DNA of 64,000 nucleotides, taken from Octopus sinensis (Eukaryota). A program made the translations under genes and the position numbers. A model generated the notes under the pieces. It made no database searches. It was not told the DNA's origin and worked only from the letters and a program-made list of their open reading frames with translations. The stretch is taken from NCBI RefSeq assembly GCF_006345805.1, contig NC_043001.1, positions 60,450,001-60,514,000 on the forward strand, read 5' to 3'. Positions 34,150-64,000 of the stretch are shown piece after piece (position 1 is the first letter of the stretch; every line of letters begins with the position of its first letter).

Positions 34150-35472
34150 AAGAATATTTCTGTAGTAGTGTTCAGATATAAGTAGCATTCTGCCTTTCTC
34201 TGACTCCCTTGTTTGCACTTGTGTGTTCGAGGTCGTTTTGAGTTCTTGGTAGGATAGGTGAAGAATAATGAGGCTGATGTGGAGAGGGGGTGGGGAAATC
34301 TGGGAATGCCTTAATGGTCGTATTTTGAATGGTCAGTGGCTGACAGTAGTCGCAGTTCAATTCAGGAATTGTTTATGGAATTTGCGTAGGCGTTATACTG
34401 AAAGACATTAGTGACAAGGTTAAGGGTGGAAGGTGGAGAAGTAGAAGAAGAAGAAGATGACGATGTTGATGATGATGATGATGAAGAAGAAGAAGAAGAA
34501 GGAGAAGGAGAAGGAGAAGATGGTGGTGATGATGGTGGTGATGATGATGACGACGACGATGATGATAATGATGATGATGAAGAAGAAGAGGAAGAAGAAG
34601 AAGAAGAAAAAAACAGAGAAGGGAGAATATGATTGGGTGTAAGTATAGCTGTGATGGGGCTGATTAGTAATGGATTCTATGGAGTGTAATATTTGTGTGT
34701 GTATATATTTCTTTTATTCTAAAGTTGAGGTATATTAATTGTTTGTCGTAGACCCGTTAAGAAGTGGCTTGTATTTTGTAATAAAGAGATTTCTTTACTT
34801 ATTCGTTGTCTCGAGGTTGTATCGTCCCTAAATTGGTAGAGGGGGAAAATTCTGAAGTTTGGTGTTTTTTTGTTGGCGCAAGTATCTATGTGTTGGCTAA
34901 AAGCTATTTTTCTGTTTTGGGGAATTTTTATCTGGGATCTGTGCAGGGCCATTCGTTTACGCAAACCATTTTTTGTTTGGCCTATGTACTGCTCTTGACA
35001 CCCAGAGCAGGTTAGTGAGTATATTAGGTTCTCCGAAGCACATGTGAAGTTGCTTTTCACTGTAAACCGTTGTCCCTGTTTGAAGGAGAACTCTGATCCC
35101 TCAATTAGATAGTCGCATATCCCGCAATTGGGTCTTCCACATTTTTTTACTGTCGGCTTCTGTGTTGAAGAGTGAATTCGGGCTTGTGTAAGGAGACTTT
35201 TCATGGATCTAGGCTGTCTTTTGCTTTTTATGATCGTGTGTGTTTGGAGGATTGTGTTCATTCTGTGGTCTTTTTTTAGGAGGGGTATGTTGTGGAGGAT
35301 GGTGTCGAAGGCCTCGTTATTGAGAGGGTTGTGTGTGGAGATGTATGGTAAGGCTTTTGGTTGTAAGTTTTTCTTTGATTTGGGATGTCTCAGTTCCTTG
35401 ATGTTAAGTTGAAGGGCACGTTGAATGCACTTGTCAATAAGTGAAGGTGGATAGTTCCTGGTGATAAGGGTA
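34150..35472 (-). mobile_element. 5'-truncated Penelope-like element, GIY-YIG endonuclease domain plus 3' region
   Basis: ORF 34719..35261(-): KCGRPNCGIC..FTCASENLIYSLTCSGCQEQYIGQTKNGLRKRMALHRSQI..FSQH; 5' end abuts (TA)n. Confidence 0.9.
34435..34612. repeat. Mixed GAA/GAT/GGT trinucleotide repeat
   Basis: Directly visible simple repeat. Confidence 0.9.
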
Positions 35473-35517
35473 TCTATCTATCTATATATATATATATTAT
35501 ATATATATATATATATA

Positions 35518-35578: not shown

Positions 35579-36112
35579 GAAAAGAGTGAAAAAACTACAG
35601 AAGGCTTGTTTTATAAGATGAAAGGATATATTTAAGTCGTTATGTTAGAAAAATGTTAGAAAATTTTGTGTATATTAACATACTTTTTGGAGAAATAACC
35701 AGTTTCGTGTAAACTTTTCAAATTTCTCAAATGTCTTTACCTACATCGTGTCAAGTCTTCGTTAAGAAGTGCAAAGAAGAGTTCCAGGCAGGGGAAGGTA
35801 ATAAGGGATTTATTTCGGTATAAGGGAGATGATCGCTTTTTTTAATGAGATGAGTTTCTCTGTATAAGAATGTTAGGATGGTTAAGTTCTGGCTTATATT
35901 TTTCAATGAAGAATGTTTCCTTGTTTAATCTAATTTGTGTTGGTGTTCCAATAGCACATTGATACAATGGAAAGATTAAAAATTGTGGTAGTAGTTGCTT
36001 TGCGCATTTCTCAATATGCTCACTAAAGGGTATCATTCTGTATTCTGGGAATGCAATCTGTTGTCGATGCAGAGTGCAACTGCGTCTGAGTGATAATCCC
36101 GTGGACCCTACG
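35577..36112 (-). mobile_element. Penelope-like element 3' fragment (GIY-YIG C-terminal half)
   Basis: YVGSTGLSLRRSCTLHRQQIAFPEYRMIPFSEHIEKCA..IFPLYQ..KETFFIEKYKPELN, homologous to the 34.7-35.3 kb ORF. Confidence 0.85.
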
Positions 36113-36237
36113 TATAGACATATATACGTCTGTTTATATATAAGTGGGGATGGGCAAACAGCAGTCTTGAAGGAACCTTAATTCTATGATATGCAGAGAG
36201 TTTCAAATAGTATTTTAAATAGAATATATGAAAATTA

Positions 36238-41248: not shown

Positions 41249-41807
41249 TTCGGAATGGTCATATTGCCAGTTTAACCAATAAGACACACGCACTATATAT
41301 TTGGTGTTATTTTGCTTCAGCGTTATTTATTTCTTACATTAATCTTATTTGGTAGAACCTATCCTTTTAGTAGAACCCCCTGTACGGATAAGTACTGTAC
41401 TGTATGTAGATTTAGCCCACAAACAAACTGTAAAGCCAGAAATGTAGTCTATAATATAAGATGTATAGAGGGACGATGCAGTAACAAGACAACGACATAC
41501 GTAGGGGAAACGGCAAGAAGCATAGGAGAGTGGGTAAATGGCCATTGGAGACAACTCAAGGAAGGTAAAAGCTCATCGATTCTGTACCAACACGCCGAAC
41601 AGGAACACGGGGGATCAATCAATAACATAGAAATTAACATATTGTCCACACATAGAACAAATTACAGAAGCTACACAGATAATAGAAAATAAACCTAGCC
41701 TGAATAGAAAACTAGAATGGAGCACTAGCACACACCACAAAATATGACGGTAGAGGATCCTTAAAACATAATAAATACACAGATAAATAAACAAATAGAA
41801 ATAAATA

Positions 41808-43967: not shown

Positions 43968-44220
43968 TTTTTTTAATTTTTCCTCGGCGTATACCAATAT
44001 TTTTCTGTTGCTGCAAATCGTTGTGTGAGTTCGTTTCCGTTTGTCTACTCTGTCGTGTTACAAGTAATATCATTGTTGAACTGTTTTTGACCCAGTAATT
44101 TTCGCCCTTCGGGGTAGAAAATTTCTGTGTATTGTTTTGTGTGAACTCTTAACCTGTATAGGTTATTTTTGAAAAAAAAAAAATTCTCTTGTCATTTGTA
44201 ACAAGTTTGTGTTGTCTAAT

Positions 44221-45714
44221 ATGGAATTAGACTTAAGTTCAAAAAAAGACTTTCCCAAGATGGGAGAAAGTATAACAACTGTTAAACAAAAGGAAACACA
44301 GGCAAAACCCAGTTTTTCAGACGCCGTAGGTGGCGAAGTCGAAGAAATGGAGGTGTCAATGGAAAGACTATTCAAGTTCAGATCGCTGGTGCAAAAAAGT
44401 GGTGAAGAAACACGATTGGTACCGCCCCCCGAAACTATACAAGCAATAAAGGAAAAAATGGTCACCTACAGGGTGTACAATATCAAGGAAAAACGAATGA
44501 CCGACGTGAAAAACGAAATGGTCGAAAAGTGTATGGCTCCAATATGGAGTAAAGTTAGTCATGTCAACCGAGGTGCAAGAAGCGCTACAGTGGAGGCGCA
44601 TTTTGAGACGGCGGAAGTAGCAAGGCAAATTTCGACACAAACGTTGAAAAACGAGAGTATAATACTGCTACCCTTATATTTAGGATGCAGAACCGCAAAA
44701 GTGACCCTAGAAGATATACCAACGGGCTACGACGTGATGTCGGCGGCAACAGCGGTCATTTTTGATGTTGAATCAAAATTGACAATTTTGAGTATGAAGA
44801 GGAAAATTGCAAAACACTGGAGAGGCCAGCAGCTGGAGATGATAATCCAGGCGGAAAATGCGACGTTGGAAAGCCTACCAGACAGAGTCTTCGTAGGGGA
44901 GGGGCACTCCATACGAGTTTCGGTGGAAGGACGCAGGCCCAGATGTTTTAAGTGCGGGCAAAAGGGCCACGTTCGCTCCGTTTGCACAAAAAAAAATAAT
45001 GCGGGCAACGCCCCCCCCCACAAAACGCTGTGAAGAACGCAGAAAGCAGCAAAGTGGAGAAAAAAGTAACGGCTGGCGAAAACAAGGAGGAAAAAATAAA
45101 CAGGTCGAACTCCAAAAAGGAGGAAGACAAGAACGAAATGCAAAATGAGAAAGGAAAGGAGGAGGAAAATAATACAACAAAAACAAATAAACAAGAAGAC
45201 ATGGAATTTACGAACGTGTCCAACAAAAGGAAAAAATCCATCACCCCTGACTCCCCACCCGTATCAAAAAAAAAAAAACAACGCAGACGAACAAATTAAA
45301 AATATTCTCCAATCCCACCCCGGCGGTACTACACTTATAGGCCAGCACTTTAACAAACCCCACCCCTCAACTGTAAAAGGGTTTAAACCCAACGAAAAAA
45401 TTATTGCATACACCACAAAGAACGTGAGAGTAGAAACATGGGTGAAAGCAAGTACGCTGATCAGGTGCTACAAAGCGACCGAGAAGGAAGCGGAGTGGCG
45501 ATATGGAAGGGTCGGCGAAGAAGGATGGAAAGACAAAACCTTACAAAGCCACGTAAAAGCCGGCTTCATTAAGGATGTCACCCAGGAGGTGACAACTGGG
45601 AAATTAGCCCGGCACGTTAGCCCGGCAGCCACACCAACCCAGCAGCAACGGCGAGTGGGGGGGGGGAGACAGGCAGAAAGAATCTGTCAGGCTCCCTCTC
45701 GCAACCGTGAGTAA
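44221..45714 (+). pseudogene. LINE ORF1 (gag-like, CX2CX4HX4C zinc knuckle), frameshifted
   Basis: EGRRPRCFKCGQKGHVRSVC; frame changes fall at or near A/C homopolymer runs (~44990-45020 and ~45266-45280). Confidence 0.85.
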
Positions 45715-45731
45715 ATAATTTTTTTTTCTCG

Positions 45732-48080
45732 ATGATTAAGTTAGGTTGTATAAATGTGCGTGGAATGGGATCGAAATGGAAACAGGCTTGTTTTCGTGAC
45801 GACCTCATTTCACATAGAATCGATGTAGCTATTGTTACCGAGTCCAAGATGAAAGGACCCCAAGCATTCTCACCACTTCTCAATGGTTACGAGAAATTTA
45901 TTTCTCCTAGCCGAGGGGGAGGTGCAGGCGTGGCAGTTCTTTTCAGGAAGAACTTGGACTTACAGGTCAGTACTGTCTTTTTGGACCCAGAAGGTAGGCT
46001 GGTTGTCCTAGATGTGACGCACGTGAGTAAGCAGTCCTTCAGGTTGGTGGCTGTCTACGCTCCTAACGGACGTGGGCAGACCGGTTTTTTTCGGGAACTG
46101 GAGCACTTTCTAGTGACGTCCAAAACGGTAGTCTTGGTAGGGGATTTCAACACCATTCTCGATGCGCGGGTGGATGGTGTAGGCTCGAGCGATACGAAGG
46201 AGAATCCTGGCCTCAAGGCTCTACTAGCGAGCTTTAATCTAGTAGACCGTTTTCGACTGGATGAGCCGAACGTTCCACAGTGGACGTGGAGTAATAACGA
46301 CGGCTCACGCAGATCGTACATAGATAGAGTATTTGTTAAGGAACGAGATAGGAATAGTGTTAGCTGTCCACAATTCTCTGTTGTGCCTTTCACGGATCAC
46401 AAACTTGTAACGTGTGAGGTACATGTAGATAAATGCCATAGACAAGGTCCCGGGTACTGGAAGATGAACAAGTCTATTTTGACTTGTGAAGATTTCCGTA
46501 CCCGGATTAAGGAATTAGTACAGAGGGCATTATGTGGCACCATCATTAATAATAGATGGTGGCTCGCCCTCAAAAGAGCCATCCGTTTGGAGTCCATTAG
46601 ATTTAGCAAGCAGCTAAGTTTAGATAGGACTAGAATAGAGGGCGAATTAGTTAAGAACTTAGACGAGGCTATGGAATCTGGCTGTGCATCAGGAGTGTTG
46701 GCAGCGAGAGCGGTATTGTACCGTCACCTCAACGCCAAGCACGAGGGTGTAGAGTCAGAGCTAAGTTACGTGCAGGAAAACGAGAAGGTATTAACGTTGC
46801 CGGATGGGCCCATCGTGAGGAGAGTCAGAAGGGCAAAAAGTCCTGTATTATGTCCTTAACTGACGAGCAGGACCGCAAGATCTATGGACAGGAGGAGATG
46901 CAGAAGGTCCTTCACCAGCATTTCGCACGGCTGTTTGGGGGCGGTGGTCCGCTCGAGCGTGGGGAGACCTTAAAGGACTTCCTAGCTGGTGGGCCTCGGC
47001 TCTCGGCAGGTGAGGCGGAGTCCTGTGAAGGATCGATCTCTCCCGCAGAGGTAAGAGGGGTTATGGCCGAGTGCGCCGGGGAAAAGTCGCCGGGATTGGA
47101 TGGTCTACCCTATGAATTTTATTGTTGTATGCCGGACTTGTTCGGGGACATACTGGCAAGCGTCTATGCAAACTGGCAACAGAATGGGAGGATTCCCAGC
47201 TCTGTGAGTCGGGGAGTTGTGACGCTGGTCCAGAAAGACCCGAGCAAGGGGGACAGTATTAGTAATTACAGGCCCATAACTCTACTTAATGTAGAGTTTA
47301 AGATTTTGGCCAAGGTGTTAGCAAAAAGGTTGACGGCTGTCGTGGAGAAACTTGTCGGGAAGGCACAGACATTTGCAATCCCAGGCAGGTCGATCCAGGA
47401 TAATCTGCACCTTCTCCGCTACACTATAGATAGGGTCGGGAAATTAGACGGCAAAGGCGGGACATTGGTCCATTTAGACCAAAGTAAAGCGTTTGATAGG
47501 GTAGACCATCGGTACTTGGCGGCGGTTCTCGAAGCGGCTGGGCTGGGCCCTAGCTTCTGCGGGTGGATCTCAGCTATGTACAGCGGCATCAAGTCCACAG
47601 TCCAGATAAACGGTTACCTAACGGAGCCGTTTTCGATCAAGCGTTCAGTTCGTCAAGGGTGCCCCTTGTCCCCGCTCCTGTATGTTTTGGCTCTTGAGCC
47701 ATTGCTGCGGAAGCTGGAGAAGTTGGGAGGCAACCCTAATGAAATCGGATGCGGTAAGTCTGTTTCTGCCTATGCGGATGACGTCACCCTCATTGTGTCC
47801 AACGGAACACAGCTACTTCGGGTAGTAGGTGCTCTCCATAGATACGAAGCGGTGGCAGGGGCAAAAGTTAACAGGGACAAGTCCATCGGTTTGCGCCTCG
47901 GCAACTGGAGGAACAAGCCGATACCGTCCAGTGTTGTTGGACACTGGACGGATGGTCCTGTTAAATTGCTCGGAGTCTGGTTTGGTCCAGACTCCCAGAC
48001 GGAGAAGAATTGGAGCGAGGTAACGAGCAAGGTGGATGCCATAGTACGGAAGTGGTCCGGAAGGCATCTTTCCTTGAAAG
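45732..48080 (+). pseudogene. LINE ORF2 (apurinic endonuclease + reverse transcriptase), one frameshift, C-terminally truncated
   Basis: APE motifs INVRG, VTESK, VYAPN, VGDFN, SYIDRVF, FTDH. RT motifs KSPGLDG, NYRPITLLN, DQSKAFDRV, VRQGCPLSPLLY, AYADD. A 1-bp deletion near 46748 joins the two ORFs. Confidence 0.92.
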
Positions 48081-48373
48081 GGAGCCTTCACTTTCATCGC
48101 TACCTGGTGGTTGCCGCCCGTTGACGAGGGACAAACATCCCGAAACTAGTTCGAGCGTATCACTCAGGCTTGCGAGGAAGGGATGGCCTCCCTTTGCAAA
48201 TACTCCAAAGACACAGATATTGTGTTTAGACCCAGCTAGAGACGCAGATCTCTTGGGGCTATAAAGCTACAGTAACAACCCCCTCCCCAATGTGGTTAGC
48301 CATGATAAGATGGCTTCTATACTCTACATTATCGAGCGATTACTGTTTCAATCTCATTCTGAGATTTAATTAT
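48081..48373 (+). repeat. Second copy of the hammerhead pseudo-LTR (direct repeat of 43581-43873)
   Basis: Colinear at an offset of exactly 4500 bp; about 5 substitutions in 293 bp by eye. Confidence 0.95.
48116..48156 (+). ncRNA. Minimal type I hammerhead motif (identical to 43616-43656)
   Basis: Same sequence as 43616-43656. Confidence 0.6.
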
Positions 48374-52668: not shown

Positions 52669-54112
52669 TTTTTTATTAACAACAAGCGCTTACATAAAAC
52701 AACATAAAATGGCACACAATAACAGGAAAAAGTAGTACAAGACAATCCAAAGGGTTTTCAAATAGAGTAAACAGTAAAATGACAATTGAAATTAAAGCAT
52801 AAAATCTCCCAATGAACCCTGCCGAAAATTCTCAGGAAGAAACCAGTCAGTTGACCCAAGTCGATGCTCAGGGTTTCCCCATGAATGTCGTCGCACTATT
52901 GCTCTACCAACCAGCTATAGAACGCTACAGTGGAACTACCGCCGAACACATTGCAGAGAGCTGGGAGGGTTTCTCGACATTCGAGTTGCTAAGCGCCCTT
53001 CCACCGTCTAAATAAATCCAAGATTGCAGCCCCGTAGAGAGACGAGCTGTGGACGAGCGAGTGTGACAAACGTTGACCATGCCTGCTCGCCATCAAGGAA
53101 CGCTGGAGTTGCTGCAGCCTGAGCGCATGTCTGCGCATCAGCAACCACGCCATGCCCAGGCCCCTATTCAGCGGCTGTTGACAGCAGATAGGACGCTTTA
53201 CCAGCAGAAAGCGACCCCTCTACATAAAGCAGAAGAGGATGCAAACCAGATTGTTCAGCCAATATAAGGAGCAGAGACAAGAGTCAAGCGGTAATTGATG
53301 ACGGATGCAATGTACGCATTCGCCACCTCAGCTGGACCTTTCGGGGACAGCTTCCCATCGGCCGATTTCTTGGTGATATTGGCCACCTTGGTCGTCACCT
53401 CATCCCAGGTTTTCTCCTCCTAGAGGTCTGGATCGAAGCAGACGCCGAGCAATTCAATCGGTCCGTCTGTCCAGCGCACCATGACGCTGTTGGATGGCAT
53501 AGATTTCCCCCTCCAGGTACCGAGTTGCAAGCTCACTGATTTTTTCTCGTTAATATTTTCTCCTGTCACCGTTGCATATTCTTGTAGTATTTATGTACTT
53601 GTGGCTCGATATTTTCACAGTGACATCTTCGCCCTAAGCAAACACCCTTCTTCTACATCCTATATAATGCGGGATACACCTCAATGCCGCCAACGTCCAC
53701 AGCAGTGGATTAAGAGTCAATAAATACAGAAGAGATGATAGAGGGCACCCTCGAGAGACCGAGCACAAAATGCCAAATGGTTCTGAAAGGAGATCACCCA
53801 AACAACCGAGCAGATGCCGCTGTACAAAGCAGTGATCCAACTGAAGAAAACCGGGCCGAAACCGGCTGCTCTGAGAACAGCTGCAAAGTAATGATGGTCG
53901 AGCCTTTCGAAGGCTTTAGATTGATCTAAATTGATCGGAATCCTACCCACCAGAGCTTCGTTACCCACCCTCTCTATTATGTAGCGCATGAGGTGGAGGT
54001 TGTCGTGAATAGTCCTGGTTAGGACGGCGCATGTTAGCGCCTTAACAATCAGCTTGTCCACGATAAGCGACAACCTCTTGTCTAATATCTTGACCAAAAT
54101 CTTCAACTGCAT
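52669..54112 (-). mobile_element. Tx1-like LINE, 5'-truncated degenerate copy related to 43968-48080
   Basis: KILVKILDKRL..IHDNLHLMRY..LDQSKAFERLDH, SRGCPLSSLLYLLTLNPLL; continues past LSPKG with PAEVANAYIASV; ends near AATAAAAAA. Confidence 0.85.
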
Positions 54113-54180
54113 AACTTTTAGAACTTGTAGATGTAACCTTTAGAACTTGTAGGTGTAACTTTTAGAATTTGTATGTGTAG
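54112..54180. repeat. 22-bp minisatellite x3
   Basis: TAAC(T/C)TTTAGAA(C/T)TTGTA(G/T)(A/G)TG repeated three times at the LINE 5' junction. Confidence 0.8.
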
Positions 54181-56398: not shown

Positions 56399-56449
<51 letters not shown>

Positions 56450-56551
56450 ACATGTAGTATATATACATAATATTTATGTGTTTCGGTTTGTATTCATTCA
56501 TACATACGTTCTTACATACCTATATATTTCGTTCGGTTCATATGTATTGTA

Positions 56552-56587
<36 letters not shown>

Positions 56588-56638
56588 TTATATATTATAA
56601 TATGTATTATATATTATATAAATATATATATATATAAT

Positions 56639-56678
<40 letters not shown>

Positions 56679-57427
56679 ATATGTATATATATATATATAT
56701 GTATATTATATATGTGTATATATATATACATGTATATATATATATGTATATATATATAGTATAATATATATATGTATATATATATACTGTATATATATAT
56801 GTATATATTATATATGTATATATAGATGTATATATGTATATATATATATGTATATATATGTATATATATATGTATATGTATATATATATATGTATGTATA
56901 TATGTGTATATATATATATGTATGTGTATATATATATATATAGTATATGTTATAATATATATAGGTATATATATATGTATATGTATATATATATATGTAG
57001 ATATATATGTATATGATTATATATGTATAGTATATATGTATGTTATATGTATATATATATTATATATATATGTATAAATATATGTATGTATATATGTATG
57101 TCTATATATATATGTATGTATATATATATATATGTATGTATATATATATATGTAGGTATATATATGTATATAATATATGTATAATATATATATATATATG
57201 ATATATATATATATTAATATATATATATTATGTATGTATATATATATAGATATATATTATATATAATATATATATATATGTATAATATATATATATTATG
57301 TATATATATATATATATATATAATATATATGTATATATATATATGTATATATATATATATGTATATTATATATATATGTATATATATATATATGTATATA
57401 TAATATATATGTATATATAATATGTTG

Positions 57428-57460
<33 letters not shown>

Positions 57461-57745
57461 GTATATATTATATATATATATGTATATATATAATATGTAT
57501 ATATATATGTATATATAATATATGTAATATATAGATATATGTATATATTATATATTATATATGTATATATATGTGTATATATATATATATGTATATATAT
57601 ATATGTATATATATATATATGTATATATATATGTTATATATATATGTATATATATATATAATATATATATATATATGTATATATATACTATATATGTATA
57701 TATATATATATATATAGTATATATATTATATGTAATATATATATG

Positions 57746-57781
<36 letters not shown>

Positions 57782-57903
57782 TAGTATATATATATATATA
57801 TGTATATATATATGTGTATATATATATATATGTATATATATGTATATATATATATATGTATATAGGATATATATATATGTATATATATATATATGTATAA
57901 TAT

Positions 57904-57934
<31 letters not shown>

Positions 57935-58135
57935 GTATACTATATGTATATATTATATATATATGTATTATATATATATATATATGTGTATTATATATTA
58001 TATGTGTATATATATATATATGTGTATATAATATATATGTATATATATATATATATGTGTATATATATATATATGTGTATATATATATATCTATATGTGT
58101 ATATATATAATATATATATGTGTATATATATATAT

Positions 58136-58178
<43 letters not shown>

Positions 58179-58290
58179 GTGTGTATATTATATAATGTAT
58201 AATATATATATGTATATATATATATGTATTATATATATATATGTATATATATATATGTATATATATATTGTATATATATATATGTATATA
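56336..58290. repeat. Very long degenerate (TA)n/(TATG)n tract
   Basis: Directly visible; ~2 kb. Confidence 0.95.
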
Positions 58291-58566
58291 TTTAAAAATT
58301 GATAGAGATAAATTAATATTAATTTTAATATCAATTTAAAACCAATAGTCCAGCATTCAAAAAATCTGAGGAGTCAGAGAAAATTCAAATATATGTGTAT
58401 ATTGGCAGGGCACGCCTGGTAGGGTAACCGGCCAGAATGCTAGAAATAGAAATAGATCATAAACGATCAAACTACAAGGGAAATTCTCTAGAGGAAGGAA
58501 TTCAGCGAACACCAGAACCAAATTTGGCGGCAGGACATATGAAAAATTAAATAAAAAACAGACTTA

Positions 58567-58641
58567 AATGCATACCTCGGTTTCGGTCTAACAAAAGAAT
58601 TACTTGCATAATTCAAGTGTCCGTGACTTCTTCAGTACATT
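58567..58641 (-). ncRNA. Type I hammerhead ribozyme motif
   Basis: Reverse complement of the motif at 59442-59517. Confidence 0.7.
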
Positions 58642-59109
58642 CGGTCCTCGAGATGCAAACCGCAAGACTAACCCCAGCTCTCTGTGTCAAGACAGACACG
58701 TGCTTAGTCTTACTGATTACATCGGGAATAAAATTTCAAATGTCTTGGTTCCGGCGCGCTAAGAGACTCCTGAAGCGAAGGGCTGCAGTGAATAATTCAC
58801 TGCGGGTAAAGCTTGCTACTAGGGAACGTATTTATTTAAATATTTAAAAATTGAGTGAGATAAATTAATATTAATTTTAATATCAATTAAAAAACAGTAG
58901 TCCAGCATTCAAAAAATCTGAGGAGTCAGAGAAAAAATTCAAATATGTGTATTGGCAGGGCTGGCCTGCTAGGTAGCCGGCCAGAATGCTAGAAATAGAT
59001 CATAAACGATAAAACTACAAGGGAAATTCTCTAGAGGAAGAATTCAGCGAACACCAGAACCAAATTTGGCGGGCAGGACATATGAAAAATTAAATAAAAA
59101 ACAGACTTA

Positions 59110-59185
59110 AATGCATACCTCGGTTTCGGTCTTAACAAAGGAATTACTTGCATAATTCAAGTGTCCGTGACTTCTTCAGTACATT
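59110..59185 (-). ncRNA. Type I hammerhead ribozyme motif
   Basis: Reverse complement of the motif at 59442-59517. Confidence 0.7.
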
Positions 59186-59441
59186 CGGTCATCGAGATGC
59201 AAACTGCAAGACTAACCCCAGCTCTCTGTGTCAAGAAAGACACGTGCTTAGTCTTACTGATTACATCGGGAATAAAATTTCAAATGTCTTGGTTCCGGCG
59301 CGCTAAGAGACTCCTGAAGCGAAGGGCTGCAGTGAATAATTCATTGAAATTTTATTCCCGATGTAATCAGTAAGACTAAGCACGTGTCTGTCTTGACACA
59401 GAGAGCTGGGGTTAGTCTTGCGGTTTGCATCTCGAGGACCG

Positions 59442-59517
59442 AATGTACTGAAGAAGTCACGGACACTTGAATTATGCAAGTAATTCTTTTGTTAAGACCG
59501 AAACCGAGGTATGCATT
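59442..59517 (+). ncRNA. Type I hammerhead ribozyme motif
   Basis: AAUGUA-CUGAAGA-A-GUC..(37 nt loop)..GAC-C-GAAA-CC-GA-GG-UA-UGCAUU. Stem I 6 bp, stem III ACC/GGU, GUA triplet, A.C at the base of stem II. Confidence 0.7.
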
Positions 59518-59679
59518 TAAGTCTGTTTTTTATTTAATTTTTCATGTCCTGCCCGCCAAATTTGGTTCTGGTGTTCGCTGAATTCTTCCTCTAGAGAATT
59601 TCCCTTGTAGTTTGATCGTTTATGATCTATTTCTAGCATTCTGGCCAGCTACCTAGCAGGCCAGCCCTGCCAATATATA

Positions 59680-59706
59680 CTTATATATGTATATATATAT
59701 ATATAG

Positions 59707-59758
<52 letters not shown>

Positions 59759-59837
59759 TGTATATATAATATATATATATATGTTATATATATATATAAT
59801 ATGTATATATACTATATGTATATATATATATGTATAT

Positions 59838-59869
<32 letters not shown>

Positions 59870-59957
59870 TGTTATATAATGTATATATATATATGTATAT
59901 ATATGTATATATATATATGTATATATAATATATATATGTTATATATATATATATATG

Positions 59958-59991
<34 letters not shown>

Positions 59992-60157
59992 GTATTATAT
60001 AGATATATATATATGTATATATATATATGTATATATATATATATGTATAGATATATGTATATGTATATATATATGTATATATATATATGTATATATAATA
60101 TATATGTGTATATAATATATATATATATATGTATATATATATATGGTATATATTATG

Positions 60158-60210
<53 letters not shown>

Positions 60211-60224
60211 GTATATATATATAG

Positions 60225-60257
<33 letters not shown>

Positions 60258-60505
60258 GTATATATATATGTTATTTATATATATGTATATATATATGTAT
60301 ATATATATATTATATACATATATGTATATATATATATGTATATACAATATGTATATATATATATATATATGTATATACATATATATATATATATATATAT
60401 GTAATACATATATATATATATGTATATAATATATGTATATATATATATATATGTATATTATATATATATACATATATGTAATATATTATGTATATACATA
60501 TGATG

Positions 60506-60538
<33 letters not shown>

Positions 60539-60586
60539 GTATACATATATGTATGTATATATATATATATATATATACTATGTATG

Positions 60587-60617
<31 letters not shown>

Positions 60618-60789
60618 GTATATATATTATGTTATATATATATGTATATATATATATGTATATATATATAGTATATATATATATGTAATATATATATATG
60701 TATATACATATATGTATATATATATATGTATATACATATATGTATATATATATATATGTATAGTATATATTATATATATGTATATATAT

Positions 60790-60873
<84 letters not shown>

Positions 60874-60895
60874 TATATATATGTATATATATATG

Positions 60896-60991
<96 letters not shown>

Positions 60992-61008
60992 GTATATATA
61001 TATATATA
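59680..61008. repeat. Very long degenerate (TA)n/(TATG)n tract
   Basis: Directly visible; ~1.3 kb. Confidence 0.95.
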
Positions 61009-61585
61009 GTGCTAGAGTGAGCCATATAGTGACCTCTCTCTTATATTTATTTTGTAAAAATATTATAATATATATTAAAATATTATAATAATCCAGGTTT
61101 CTCGGAGCACTAGGCCACTTGGTGTTGAATAGATATACTAAATTAATTAGTATCTAATTCTCTCACCATTATAATTAATTATATATTGCTACATTATTCT
61201 AAATGCAGTATTTGTTTTCCGTGAAAGTTTGGCGCGCTGTTAGTAGGGGCATTTGAATTATAACGTCGGATGTAATCAATTGAACCACACGTGTATTTAT
61301 CGTTATGGTAAAATCTGGCGTGTGATTGAGTGGATTTCATCCAGATAGTTTGGCTGAGGAGCTACAAGTGGATTTTTTTGTAAGTAAATTACATTTAATT
61401 CATTAATAGCGAAACAATTGTCCCAAAATAATCTGTATTTTTGTTATTTTTATTTGCCCTGTCCGTGTGAGCTAACAGTCGTACTGACTTTCATGGGAAA
61501 CATGTATTTTGTGGTCGAATCGAAACCTTTGGATTAACTAGTGCTAGAGTGAGCCATATAGTGACCACTCTCTTATATTTATTTT
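61007..61585 (+). mobile_element. ORF-less hammerhead element: 532 bp unit with ~47 bp terminal direct repeat, inside (TA)n
   Basis: TAGTGCTAGAGTGAGCCATATAGTGACC.CTCTCTTATATTTATTTT at 61007-61053 and 61539-61585. Confidence 0.85.
61349..61427 (+). ncRNA. Type I hammerhead ribozyme, fully canonical core
   Basis: UUUGG-CUGAGGA-GCUA..UAGC-GAAA-CAAUUG-UC-CCAAA. All core nucleotides present, G10.1-C11.1 pair, palindromic stem III ACAAUUGU, GUC triplet; stem I extends past an internal loop (CAGAU/AUCUG). Confidence 0.85.
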
Positions 61586-61750
61586 ATTATTTCATATTAT
61601 TATATATATATATATGTATAATATATATGTATATATATGTATATATATATATGTATATATATATATATTGTATATATATGTATTATATATATATGTATAT
61701 ATATGTATATATATATATGTATATATATGTATAATATATGTTATATAATG

Positions 61751-61836: not shown

Positions 61837-64000
61837 GATTGATTGATTGATTGATTCTAGTTTCAGCTTATGAGCTGTGGCCATGCTGGGGCACCGCCAT
61901 TTGGTGTTGCTACTTGGTTTCACTTCATGGAGCTTTCTAGCAACTGCTATTTGGTGCATGAGAGAGTTCGATGCAGCTGTTGGTTCATCTGGGGACACCT
62001 GACAGGAAGAGATCCAGCTTCATTTTAAAGACATCTGTATCCACCCCATGCAGGTCTCTCAGGTTCTTCGGGAAGGATATTGAAGAGCTGTGGGCCTCGG
62101 AAGCCCAGGCTATCACAGAATCTGTCCTACATCTTGATGGCAGGTTTGGAGTCCTAGGCACCACGCAGTGGCGCCCAGTTCTGGCATTTGCGTAACTCTC
62201 GATGCCAAAGTTCAGGACACTTCCCTCCAGGATCTTCCAGATGTATATTATGGCATATCTTTCCCGCCTACGCTCCAGGGAATATGATTTTAATCTCTGA
62301 GTCTTTCCCAGTAGCTTACATTCTGCATAGAGGCTATCTTCTTGTGTAGCTTCGTTGGATCGCCTCAAGTTCTGTGATCAACTTGACACTGGATGGTGAC
62401 CATAGCTGAGAGCAATAGTCAAAGTGGCTTAGGACAAGTGTCTTCCAGAGGACCATCATGGTTCTTGTTCTCTTGTTCTAAAGGTTCTAAGAATCCATCC
62501 AGCCAGCCGTCTACATTTCATTGTCAGTTTAGCAACATGTAAATGAAAGGTCGCGTCATCACTCATGTGAATACCCAGGTCACGCACTGATTGTGCCTCT
62601 GGGATTGCAATCCCTCCGGGTCCAGTGTATTCATTGGGTATTGCATTCAGTTTTGCATGCTGATAGTATAAAGCTTGAAACTTTCAGCATTGAACTGCAT
62701 GCTATTTTTTCAGCCCACTTGTATATTTCGTCCAGCTCACATTGCAGGGGTTAGTGTCCTCAGGGTTCTGTATTGCCTGTGAAACCTTTGTATCATCTGC
62801 ATAACTTGTGATCGTGGCTCTCTGCGTGGCTGAGGGCATGTCTGAGAGGGCCATTATGAACAGTAGTGGTCCCAGAACAGTGCCCTGCGGAACACCGCTC
62901 ACTATTTGTGTGTTAATGGAGGTGGCCCCATTGGCTACTACCCCTGACTTCTATCCTTCAGAAAGTCATGAAGCCATTCTCCCAGTTTTCCAACTATGTT
63001 GAGATCACGCAGTTTGTGACATATCATTCCATGGTCGACTTTATCAAAGGCCTTTGCAAAGTCGAGATATATCACTTCCACATTTGAGTGGTTGAGCAGG
63101 CCGTTTCAGCACCCAGTCATAGTGTTGTAGGAGCTGAGTAAACAGCTTCTCCCTGGTCGGAAACCATGTTGGGTGTCGGGCAGCAAGTCATTCTCTTCAA
63201 GGAAGGTGATCAGCTTCATTCTGACTATTCGTTCCATGACCTTGCTGATGTGTGAGGTCAGAGAGATAGGTCTATAGTTCTGGCTTCCGCTCTGCTACCT
63301 CCTTATGAATGGGCATATTTTACCTTCCTTCAGTTTTCCTGGAAGTTTGCCAGCTGCAAGGAAGCTCTGAAAGAGGAACGCAGTGTCTTGCTAGGACTCT
63401 CTTACATGCTTTTAGGAGGATTGCCGGGAATCCATCGGGGCCAGTAGCTGAGTCTGTTTTCATTTCATCTTCGCCTGGTTACATCGTCTTCCTTTATATC
63501 GATGTAATCTATCGTCGCCGCCTCTGATTTTATATCTGCAGTGGTAAAAAAGTCAGTTGGATTGGTGATTTGGAGATGCCCAGGGGTGGAGTGAGTGAAA
63601 ACACTCTTGAATTGCTCATTCAGTATTTCACTTACCCTCATTGGTTTTCCTGTAAGTGTGCCATCCTTTTCGAGGAGTAGCCCTATTCTACAGTGCTGTA
63701 GCTGTTTCTTTGGCATACCTGTAGAAAGCTCTGGGGTTAGATTTTATGTTTTCTATAGCCCAGGCTTCTTTGTCTGCTCTTTCTTTTTCATGGGAGAGTT
63801 GCAGACATTTTTCGATTTCCAACAGTTTTATTTAGGCGGGACTTTTCACTGCTTTCAATCTGTTTGTTTAGGCGATTTGAAAATTTCGTACGCCGTCTCA
63901 TTAAAATTTCCTCTCTCTGGGGATTTTGTTCTTGTGTACAGTGGCCTTTCTCTCTGGGACACATTTGTAGCATATGGCTTGCATTACAGACATGAATTGT
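61837..64000 (-). mobile_element. CR1-clade LINE (RT and 3' end with (AATC)n tail), frameshifted, runs off window end
   Basis: SGVPQGTVLGPLLF..SYADDTK, IYLDFAKAFDKVDHG, NYRPISLTSHISKVME, YSLERRRERYAIIYIWKI; tail seen as (GATT)n at 61837-61856. Confidence 0.92.

Follow-up and report, generated by a model that had tools for sequence, protein, structure and literature searches.

The element at positions 58289 to 59675 of the window (the whole 64,000-nt stretch of DNA analyzed here) is, as judged from its sequence, one two-armed insertion of a young, dispersed, noncoding 546-nt hammerhead repeat family in (TA)n. With at least two consecutive units at the locus, each carrying a type I hammerhead, it falls among the non-LTR retrozymes as defined by Li, Clavereau and Pollet (2026, bioRxiv 10.64898/2026.07.22.740005) and appears as a new member of the animal non-LTR retrozymes, a known class. 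We consider it fairly likely that a Penelope-like element (PLE) supplies the reverse transcriptase-endonuclease by which this retrozyme family is copied into DNA.

The repeat anatomy is directly visible at the locus. Long (TA)n tracts flank the element on both sides, and a long arm of two units meets a partial inverted arm, which lies head-to-head with copy 2 (joint overlap of 3 nt):

56401 to 58291, no strand: (TA)n microsatellite, left target flank
58289 to 58834, minus strand: unit copy 1, family positions 1-544; the long arm's 3' end at fixed site B, into (TA)n
58566 to 58642, minus strand: type I hammerhead 1 (core 58635-58573), predicted cut between 58573 and 58572
58573 to 59115, minus strand: predicted 543-nt monomer RNA between both cuts, fold z -2.9
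58835 to 59346, minus strand: unit copy 2, positions 33-546; the long arm's 5'-truncated end, inside the unit's GCAGTGAAT-A-ATTCACTGC palindrome
59109 to 59186, minus strand: type I hammerhead 2 (core 59179-59116), predicted cut between 59116 and 59115
59344 to 59675, plus strand: inverted arm, unit positions about 96-440; 3' end at fixed site A, into (TA)n
59360 to 59431, plus strand: long hairpin (unit 112-183) lying upstream of the ribozyme; a similarly shaped hairpin lies at the matching place in the 535-nt sister family
59420 to 59422, plus strand: per-unit mutation hot spot, unit 172-174; GCG in the inverted arm
59441 to 59518, plus strand: type I hammerhead 3 (core 59448-59511), part of the inverted arm, predicted cut between 59511 and 59512
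59673 to 61008, no strand: (TA)n microsatellite, right target flank
61007 to 61590, plus strand: separate insertion of the sister retrozyme family, 535-nt unit, hammerhead core 61354-61422; used as a comparison set

This layout bears out most of the first-pass annotation, which had described two minus-strand hammerheads 543 nt apart in near-identical tandem units, with no convincing ORF, followed by an inverted third copy. The first two copies agree at 94%, with numerous small indels in copy 1, and the third copy is present in part. ATG frames within the element reach 64 aa at most, and an ORF for a reverse transcriptase with GIY-YIG is absent from it; a 40-aa sense ORF has a stop after its ATG in most copies of one related lineage. 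The 543-nt spacing is peculiar to the window locus, the unit period across the family being 546 nt. An assembly artefact, raised earlier as a ground for doubt, does not account for the tandem: the tandem plus inverted layout recurs at dozens of loci, the unit is found in contigs from public runs, and a 467-nt contig from one such run spans the boundary from copy 2 to copy 1. The reading as a retrozyme stood, on sequence evidence, with respect to its class, type I hammerheads, predicted 543-nt monomer, and link to Penelope. The supposedly exceptional unit length did not, since published metazoan retrozyme consensus lengths (51-972 bp) include 546 nt (PMC7229834; bioRxiv 10.64898/2026.07.22.740005).

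The 2.7-Gb genome was searched and the best 40 of 1238 candidates were scored, giving at least 132 matches. The family is dispersed over many contigs and has no LTR/PBS/PPT layout. A 16-nt hammerhead word had 309 exact matches genome-wide, and its reversed control had none. We analyzed 79 loci, comprising 22 of the 30 best matches (8 overlapping ones were dropped) and 57 stretches, 56 of them surrounding sites that belong to the first 100 of the 309 word matches and one surrounding another genome match.

Across these 79 loci, the 3' ends of the arms were fixed and the 5' ends were random. Site A (unit 431-446) formed the 3' end of 54 of 132 arms and site B (unit 535-546), 104 nt away, that of 63, so that 117 arms ended at A or B and 15 elsewhere; TA-rich sequence flanked the 3' end in 113. 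The 5' ends were scattered, without enrichment at the cut (within 10 nt of it in 5/132 arms; 5.1 expected). Two-armed insertions carried one end of each kind. Among 45 head-to-head loci, 34 were A+B, none was A+A or B+B, and 11 had one other end; where both arms of an insertion ended at A or B, the pairing was thus A+B in every case (34 of 34). The window locus is itself paired B+A (long arm B, inverted arm A). The sister family followed suit, with 17 discordant, 0 concordant, and 3 odd-ended loci out of 20. By analogy, this one-of-each rule resembles the one-sided tail of Penelope insertions. Twin priming of the L1 type on adjoining segments of one linear RNA was rejected (at 9/47 joints a 5' end lay no more than 30 nt from the 3' site of the other arm, versus 9.9 expected), as was simple fold-back copying as a general rule, several short arms not being nested (L090, L127, and L131). 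In the literature covered, we found nothing on this 546-nt family or on paired 3' retrozyme sites; supplementary retrozyme tables outside that coverage could list the family.

All three hammerhead copies in the window have the type I core CUGANGA ... GAAA ... UH with stems I, II, and III in type I order. The order reads stem I (GAAUGUA/UGCAUUU), CUGAAGA, stem II, GAAA, CCGAGG, and GUA, with the predicted cut after GUA. Stem II starts with an A·C mismatch, followed by GUC/GAC and a long extension with a GCAA loop (44-nt insert), and stem III, of three pairs and a 2-nt loop, is of the short near-palindromic dimer type; neither this nor the mismatch had been noticed in the first-pass annotation. 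Rfam gave no hammerhead at gathering score in the 64-kb window, nor, within the element, any at E ≤ 10, a failure that the 44-nt stem II insert and the short stem III probably explain; its miRNA matches were hairpin or TA artefacts. Support for the fold comes instead from covariation. Relatives at about 87%, 79%, and 72% identity, located via read loose ends and pattern searches, all retain the hammerhead fold, and across 12 sequences 95.3% of 297 cells were paired, with two-sided change in 8 of 25 pairs. The covariation score was reached by 0 of 500 shuffles, a count that is not a probability since the 12 rows are mutually related and the changes are not independent events. Two of the older relatives (L225 and L226; about 72% identity) form tandem arrays with canonical G10.1-C11.1 hammerheads and a GUC triplet. 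The sister family hammerhead has a canonical core, a palindromic stem III (CAAUUG), and the cut triplet GUC; its units share the motifs GCGCGC, CATTTGAA, GATGTAATCA, and CACGYGT with the window units, possibly as promoter or binding elements.

How readily this ribozyme would cut is a separate matter. The 10.1-11.1 pair closing stem II is usually G-C, although a lack of pairing there is no strict bar to membership among hammerheads. The oldest relatives have G-C at this position and the next ones A-U, whereas the 546-nt family has an unpaired A10.1·C11.1 mismatch throughout, which lowers the odds of fast cleavage. Cofolding of two ribozyme pieces gave a double-hammerhead layout. In a 190-nt context, however, the probability of stem I was about 0.35 and that of the GUC/GAC part of stem II 0.08, and minimum-energy folds at full length lacked an active ribozyme. 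In the predicted fold of a transcript that includes the inverted arm, this arm pairs completely with the copy 2 ribozyme; read-through of the arm would block that hammerhead, so a monomer from the window locus would need a transcript starting inside copy 2. Published hammerheads with a short near-palindromic stem III act as dimers (Cervera and de la Peña 2014, PMC4209133), minimal PLE hammerheads cleave poorly (PMC4209133), and 1 of 9 Xenopus retrozyme dimers was reported to cleave in vitro. Given the dimer-type stem III, the A·C mismatch, the inactive full-context folds, and the block by the inverted arm, these models make cleavage and circular RNA less sure than had been assumed. Our literature search, which lay outside most subscription papers and supplements, found no hammerhead with an A10.1·C11.1 mismatch.

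Several other retroelements lie in the window, among them three GIY-YIG-type fragments, one of which is confirmed by Pfam:

34719 to 35477 and downstream, minus strand: 3' part of a high-copy PLE (also at L143-L145), with intact 784-aa frames elsewhere in the genome
35842 to 36177, minus strand: GIY-YIG-type PLE fragment of a separate large family with its own 3' region
41276 to 41692, plus strand: GIY-YIG-type PLE fragment of a separate large family with its own 3' region
44173 to 48124, plus strand: non-LTR retrotransposon with a gag-like CCHC frame and APE endonuclease and RT frames, frameshifted
53717 to 54139, minus strand: fragment related to the retrotransposon at 44173-48124
61985 to 64000, minus strand: decayed LINE RT region, putatively CR1/Jockey-like by its motifs

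The families of the fragments at 35842-36177 and 41276-41692 lack the hammerhead unit. The high-copy PLE has a CX4CX2C linker, a U3-A8 hammerhead with a palindromic CCGG stem III, and a GA/CAT-rich 3' UTR. Its 784-aa open frames (RVT_1 plus GIY-YIG) occur in the same genome, and it too targets (TA)n. It has two 3' ends 40 nt apart, owing to an optional 40-nt tail (13 tailed and 20 untailed, overlapping loci included), and at L038 and L144 it is arranged head-to-head with the tail on one arm and not on the other. The earlier suggestion of an autonomous PLE sharing the unit was followed up among three PLE families and 25 relative loci, where we found short shared motifs (best E, 0.05) and no such element; none of the three PLE families could be aligned with the unit at E < 0.01, and further PLE families exist.

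The layout of the window family is nonetheless of the PLE type, with a partial tandem, an inverted 5'-truncated copy, paired end sites, and a microsatellite target. In published accounts, PLE insertions combine a partial tandem, a 5'-truncated copy in inverse orientation, and a one-sided tail (Craig et al. 2021, PMC8557442; Arkhipova et al. 2013, PMC3846280), and a purified PLE enzyme, which cuts both strands and extends each of them, begins synthesis at two sites inside the RNA and inserts uncut RNA in vitro without need of ribozyme cleavage (Frangieh et al. 2024, PMC11167929). With EN+ PLEs the family shares this arrangement, including a tail at one end and AT-rich or (TA)n targets (PMC8557442, PMC3846280, PMC11167929, PMC4209133), as well as two internal RT start sites, dimer-type hammerheads, and a palindromic stem III (PMC11167929, PMC4209133). 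Unlike them, it has no ORF, its 3' sites are 104 nt apart rather than the 30-40 reported for PLEs, and its unit has no direct homology to the three PLE families compared. Nonautonomous Chlamys PLEs such as MRC1 likewise form multicopy head-to-tail insertions (PMC8557442); these share 3' ends with autonomous families and belong to clades said to lack canonical hammerheads (PMC8557442), whereas the window family has a hammerhead and no parent among the three PLE families compared. We regard priming of the PLE type as very likely.

Compared with metazoan non-LTR retrozymes (PMC7229834; bioRxiv 10.64898/2026.07.22.740005), the family has in common its noncoding tandem type I hammerhead units, GC content below 45%, dispersed arrays, co-occurring PLEs, and, as in the axolotl, a short helix III that requires dimers. 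The 44-nt stem II insert and the A·C closing pair set it apart. For those retrozymes RNA expression, cleavage, and circles have been reported, whereas for the window family cleavage and circles are predictions. In the available parts of these two sources we found no account of insertions that have two arms and paired 3' sites, of targeting to (TA)n, or of a hot spot hit unit by unit, all of which the window family has.

The arrays also bear on the template. Few 5' ends lay near the cut, and 133 of 150 pieces spanning it were unchanged over 12 nt; the template was therefore continuous across the cut. Differences rose from 250 of 26,514 sites within arms (0.94%) to 485 of 30,005 between arms (1.62%) and 2.75% between loci, and minor alleles were shared in 550 of 809 cases within arms, 538 of 1033 between arms, and 17% between loci. 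Lineage SNPs were uniform within loci, six of them being mosaic in 1 to 4 loci where 14 to 36 were expected. This uniformity and the low within-locus difference suggest that each insertion draws mostly on one haplotype, either a circle or an uncut uniform multimer. The lack of 5' enrichment at the cut and the uniform SNPs thus fit repeated copying of one template, and sister family arms, in which as many as 9 full and almost identical units follow one another, would favor its reuse. Uniform arrays would arise equally well by read-through of uniform source arrays. At L006 and L017, the whole insertion was duplicated after insertion, and at L117 and L141, private variants alternate (ABAB) in arms of 4 to 5 units, which may reflect a dimer template or a later two-unit duplication. 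A dimer-circle periodicity was rejected, since a lag test over 19 loci was flat (0.45, 0.38, 0.49, and 0.39%) and later duplication explains the ABAB pattern. Because of these DNA-level duplications, array length alone is no proof of rolling circles. Nor need both arms derive from one RNA: arm haplotypes differ at some loci (e.g., L095), and at L025 (positions 2189-2245) the second arm consists of a short hammerhead piece of the PLE type that ends in TA and meets a unit arm head-to-head, a single case and a possible two-RNA chimera. No public run with the unit is on record as RNA. Contigs from runs presumed to be RNA include portions of the unit and reach across the cut site, and carry no information on RNA ends, strand, or level; one loose end among them belonged to an unrelated ATC-repeat locus.

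A per-unit GCG>TCA hot spot, which is a new observation here, lies at unit 172-174 on the 3' strand of hairpin 112-183, at the base of its inner stem. TCA was present in 29 of 130 sampled units, and exact 23-mers genome-wide numbered 37 for TCA and 156 for GCG (about 19%, or roughly 1 in 5). In the window, copy 1 (58663-58661) and the inverted arm have GCG and copy 2 has GCA. TCA occurred in both lineage groups (13/67 and 16/63) and in both arm types, with no tie to unit order (22/94 first, 5/27 second, and 2/6 third units). Over 31 loci, 13 were mosaic, 17 had no TCA, and 1 had only TCA, against 16.7 and 0.75 predicted for none and all under independent draw. Neighboring units never shared it (0/36; P of about 0.0005 if inherited at 19% and 0.27 if independent), and other mosaic sites were rare (at most 5 loci). 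An assembly error was ruled out, as three large independent public runs carry TCA at 9 to 17% of depth; it was absent from one further public run presumed to be RNA (contigs only), which we leave outside the evidence. At unit 174, G>A was found in 48 of 137 units versus 0 to 5 at 15 other CpG sites (one further CpG is a lineage marker). The sister family, with its 535-nt unit, has no corresponding hot spot, and we found no report of such a hot spot in the literature, most subscription papers and supplements being outside the search.

The origin of the TCA change is less certain. Whether it is made by the reverse transcriptase seems to us an even question. In one copy (L123), TCA is accompanied by a 29-nt microhomology deletion at the hot spot, which suggests realignment by the enzyme. 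The change may have been templated by TCAGT on the far side of the helix or, through fold-back, by the ribozyme core, the 5- to 6-nt matches being within chance; a modified base or a DNA event after insertion may also be responsible. We rejected an antisense switch on the ribozyme core (pairing probability of 0.01 in folded natural units), a correction of the hairpin (which is weakened, from -28.9 to -23.8 kcal/mol), and A-to-I editing (no signature; A>G, 0.27 and T>C, 0.29 per site).

In the mechanism that we propose, a tandem copy would be transcribed, and neighboring hammerheads would, with somewhat better than even prospects, pair via CCGAGG into a double hammerhead and cut after GUA, a reaction that the A·C pair probably slows. 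The monomer, with a 5'-OH at one end and a 2',3'-cyclic phosphate at the other, might or might not then be ligated into a circle, the two outcomes being about equally balanced. A PLE enzyme, probably a dimer, would cut both (TA)n strands and prime from both ends at two internal AU-rich sites. Each cDNA would circle the template for a variable length, with perhaps a 1-in-5 chance per pass of the GCG>TCA error at the base of the upstream hairpin's inner stem, and the two cDNAs would be joined head-to-head through short microhomology. Mobilization of retrozymes by PLEs through circles is itself a published hypothesis.

The circle would be unnecessary if a PLE instead copied uncut linear multimers and the hammerhead were weak or vestigial in this youngest family, which we think rather unlikely. 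In keeping with that alternative, the family expanded even though the family-wide A10.1·C11.1 mismatch had arisen, the predicted folds are inactive, PLE insertion proceeds in vitro without cleavage (PMC11167929), minimal PLE hammerheads cleave poorly (PMC4209133), and a scarless cut site suits uncut RNA equally well. However, the core and all stems have been kept, with compensation, over about 28% divergence. Linear copying also predicts that TCA and unit-specific variants are passed on in phase, whereas TCA is not tied to position and other mosaic sites are few, and it predicts arrays that shorten with each round, whereas the sister family, with its canonical core, has the long arms described above.

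The remaining explanations concern what the unit is. It could be the pseudo-LTR or 3' part of a yet-unfound autonomous PLE, with the loci as truncated copies: the hammerhead 3' half GACCGAAACCG and a U-rich tract ending TTTTTCATAT are common to the unit and a PLE 3' end, Xenopus retrozymes are published as related to pLTRs, and a rare parent PLE may lie beyond the best-scored search candidates. Yet head-to-tail units without coding sequence make up 79 family and 49 relative loci, and lineages 72 to 100% alike keep the same unit length and ends, which leaves this reading improbable. Less probable still, and largely refuted, is a satellite formed by DNA-level duplication or an assembly artefact; the many small indels of copy 1 and the later duplications at some loci would suit it, but the dispersal over many contigs, the fixed 3' ends with their A/B pairing, the scattered 5' ends, and the presence of the unit and its variants in independent public runs do not.

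We return, then, to a non-LTR retrozyme that is probably mobilized by a PLE. In the available literature, how PLEs make tandem plus inverted insertions is still an open question, as is whether animal retrozymes move through circles copied by PLE enzymes. With its many clean insertions, strict one-arm-per-site rule, and per-unit mark, the family would lend itself well to in vitro work with an intact PLE of its own genome. Tentatively, and as a possibility short of an even chance, each array may record, like a tape, how a dimeric Penelope enzyme went around one RNA circle pass after pass from two fixed priming sites, with GCG>TCA as a per-pass slip of the reverse transcriptase at an RNA stem. 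About 1 in 5 units would then be marked independently, and marked units would seldom if ever serve as templates again, as the unshared marks of neighboring units suggest. If this were true, the arrays would offer a readout, built into the genome, of target-primed reverse transcription in rolling-circle mode, and would show that the RNA hairpin is under selection.
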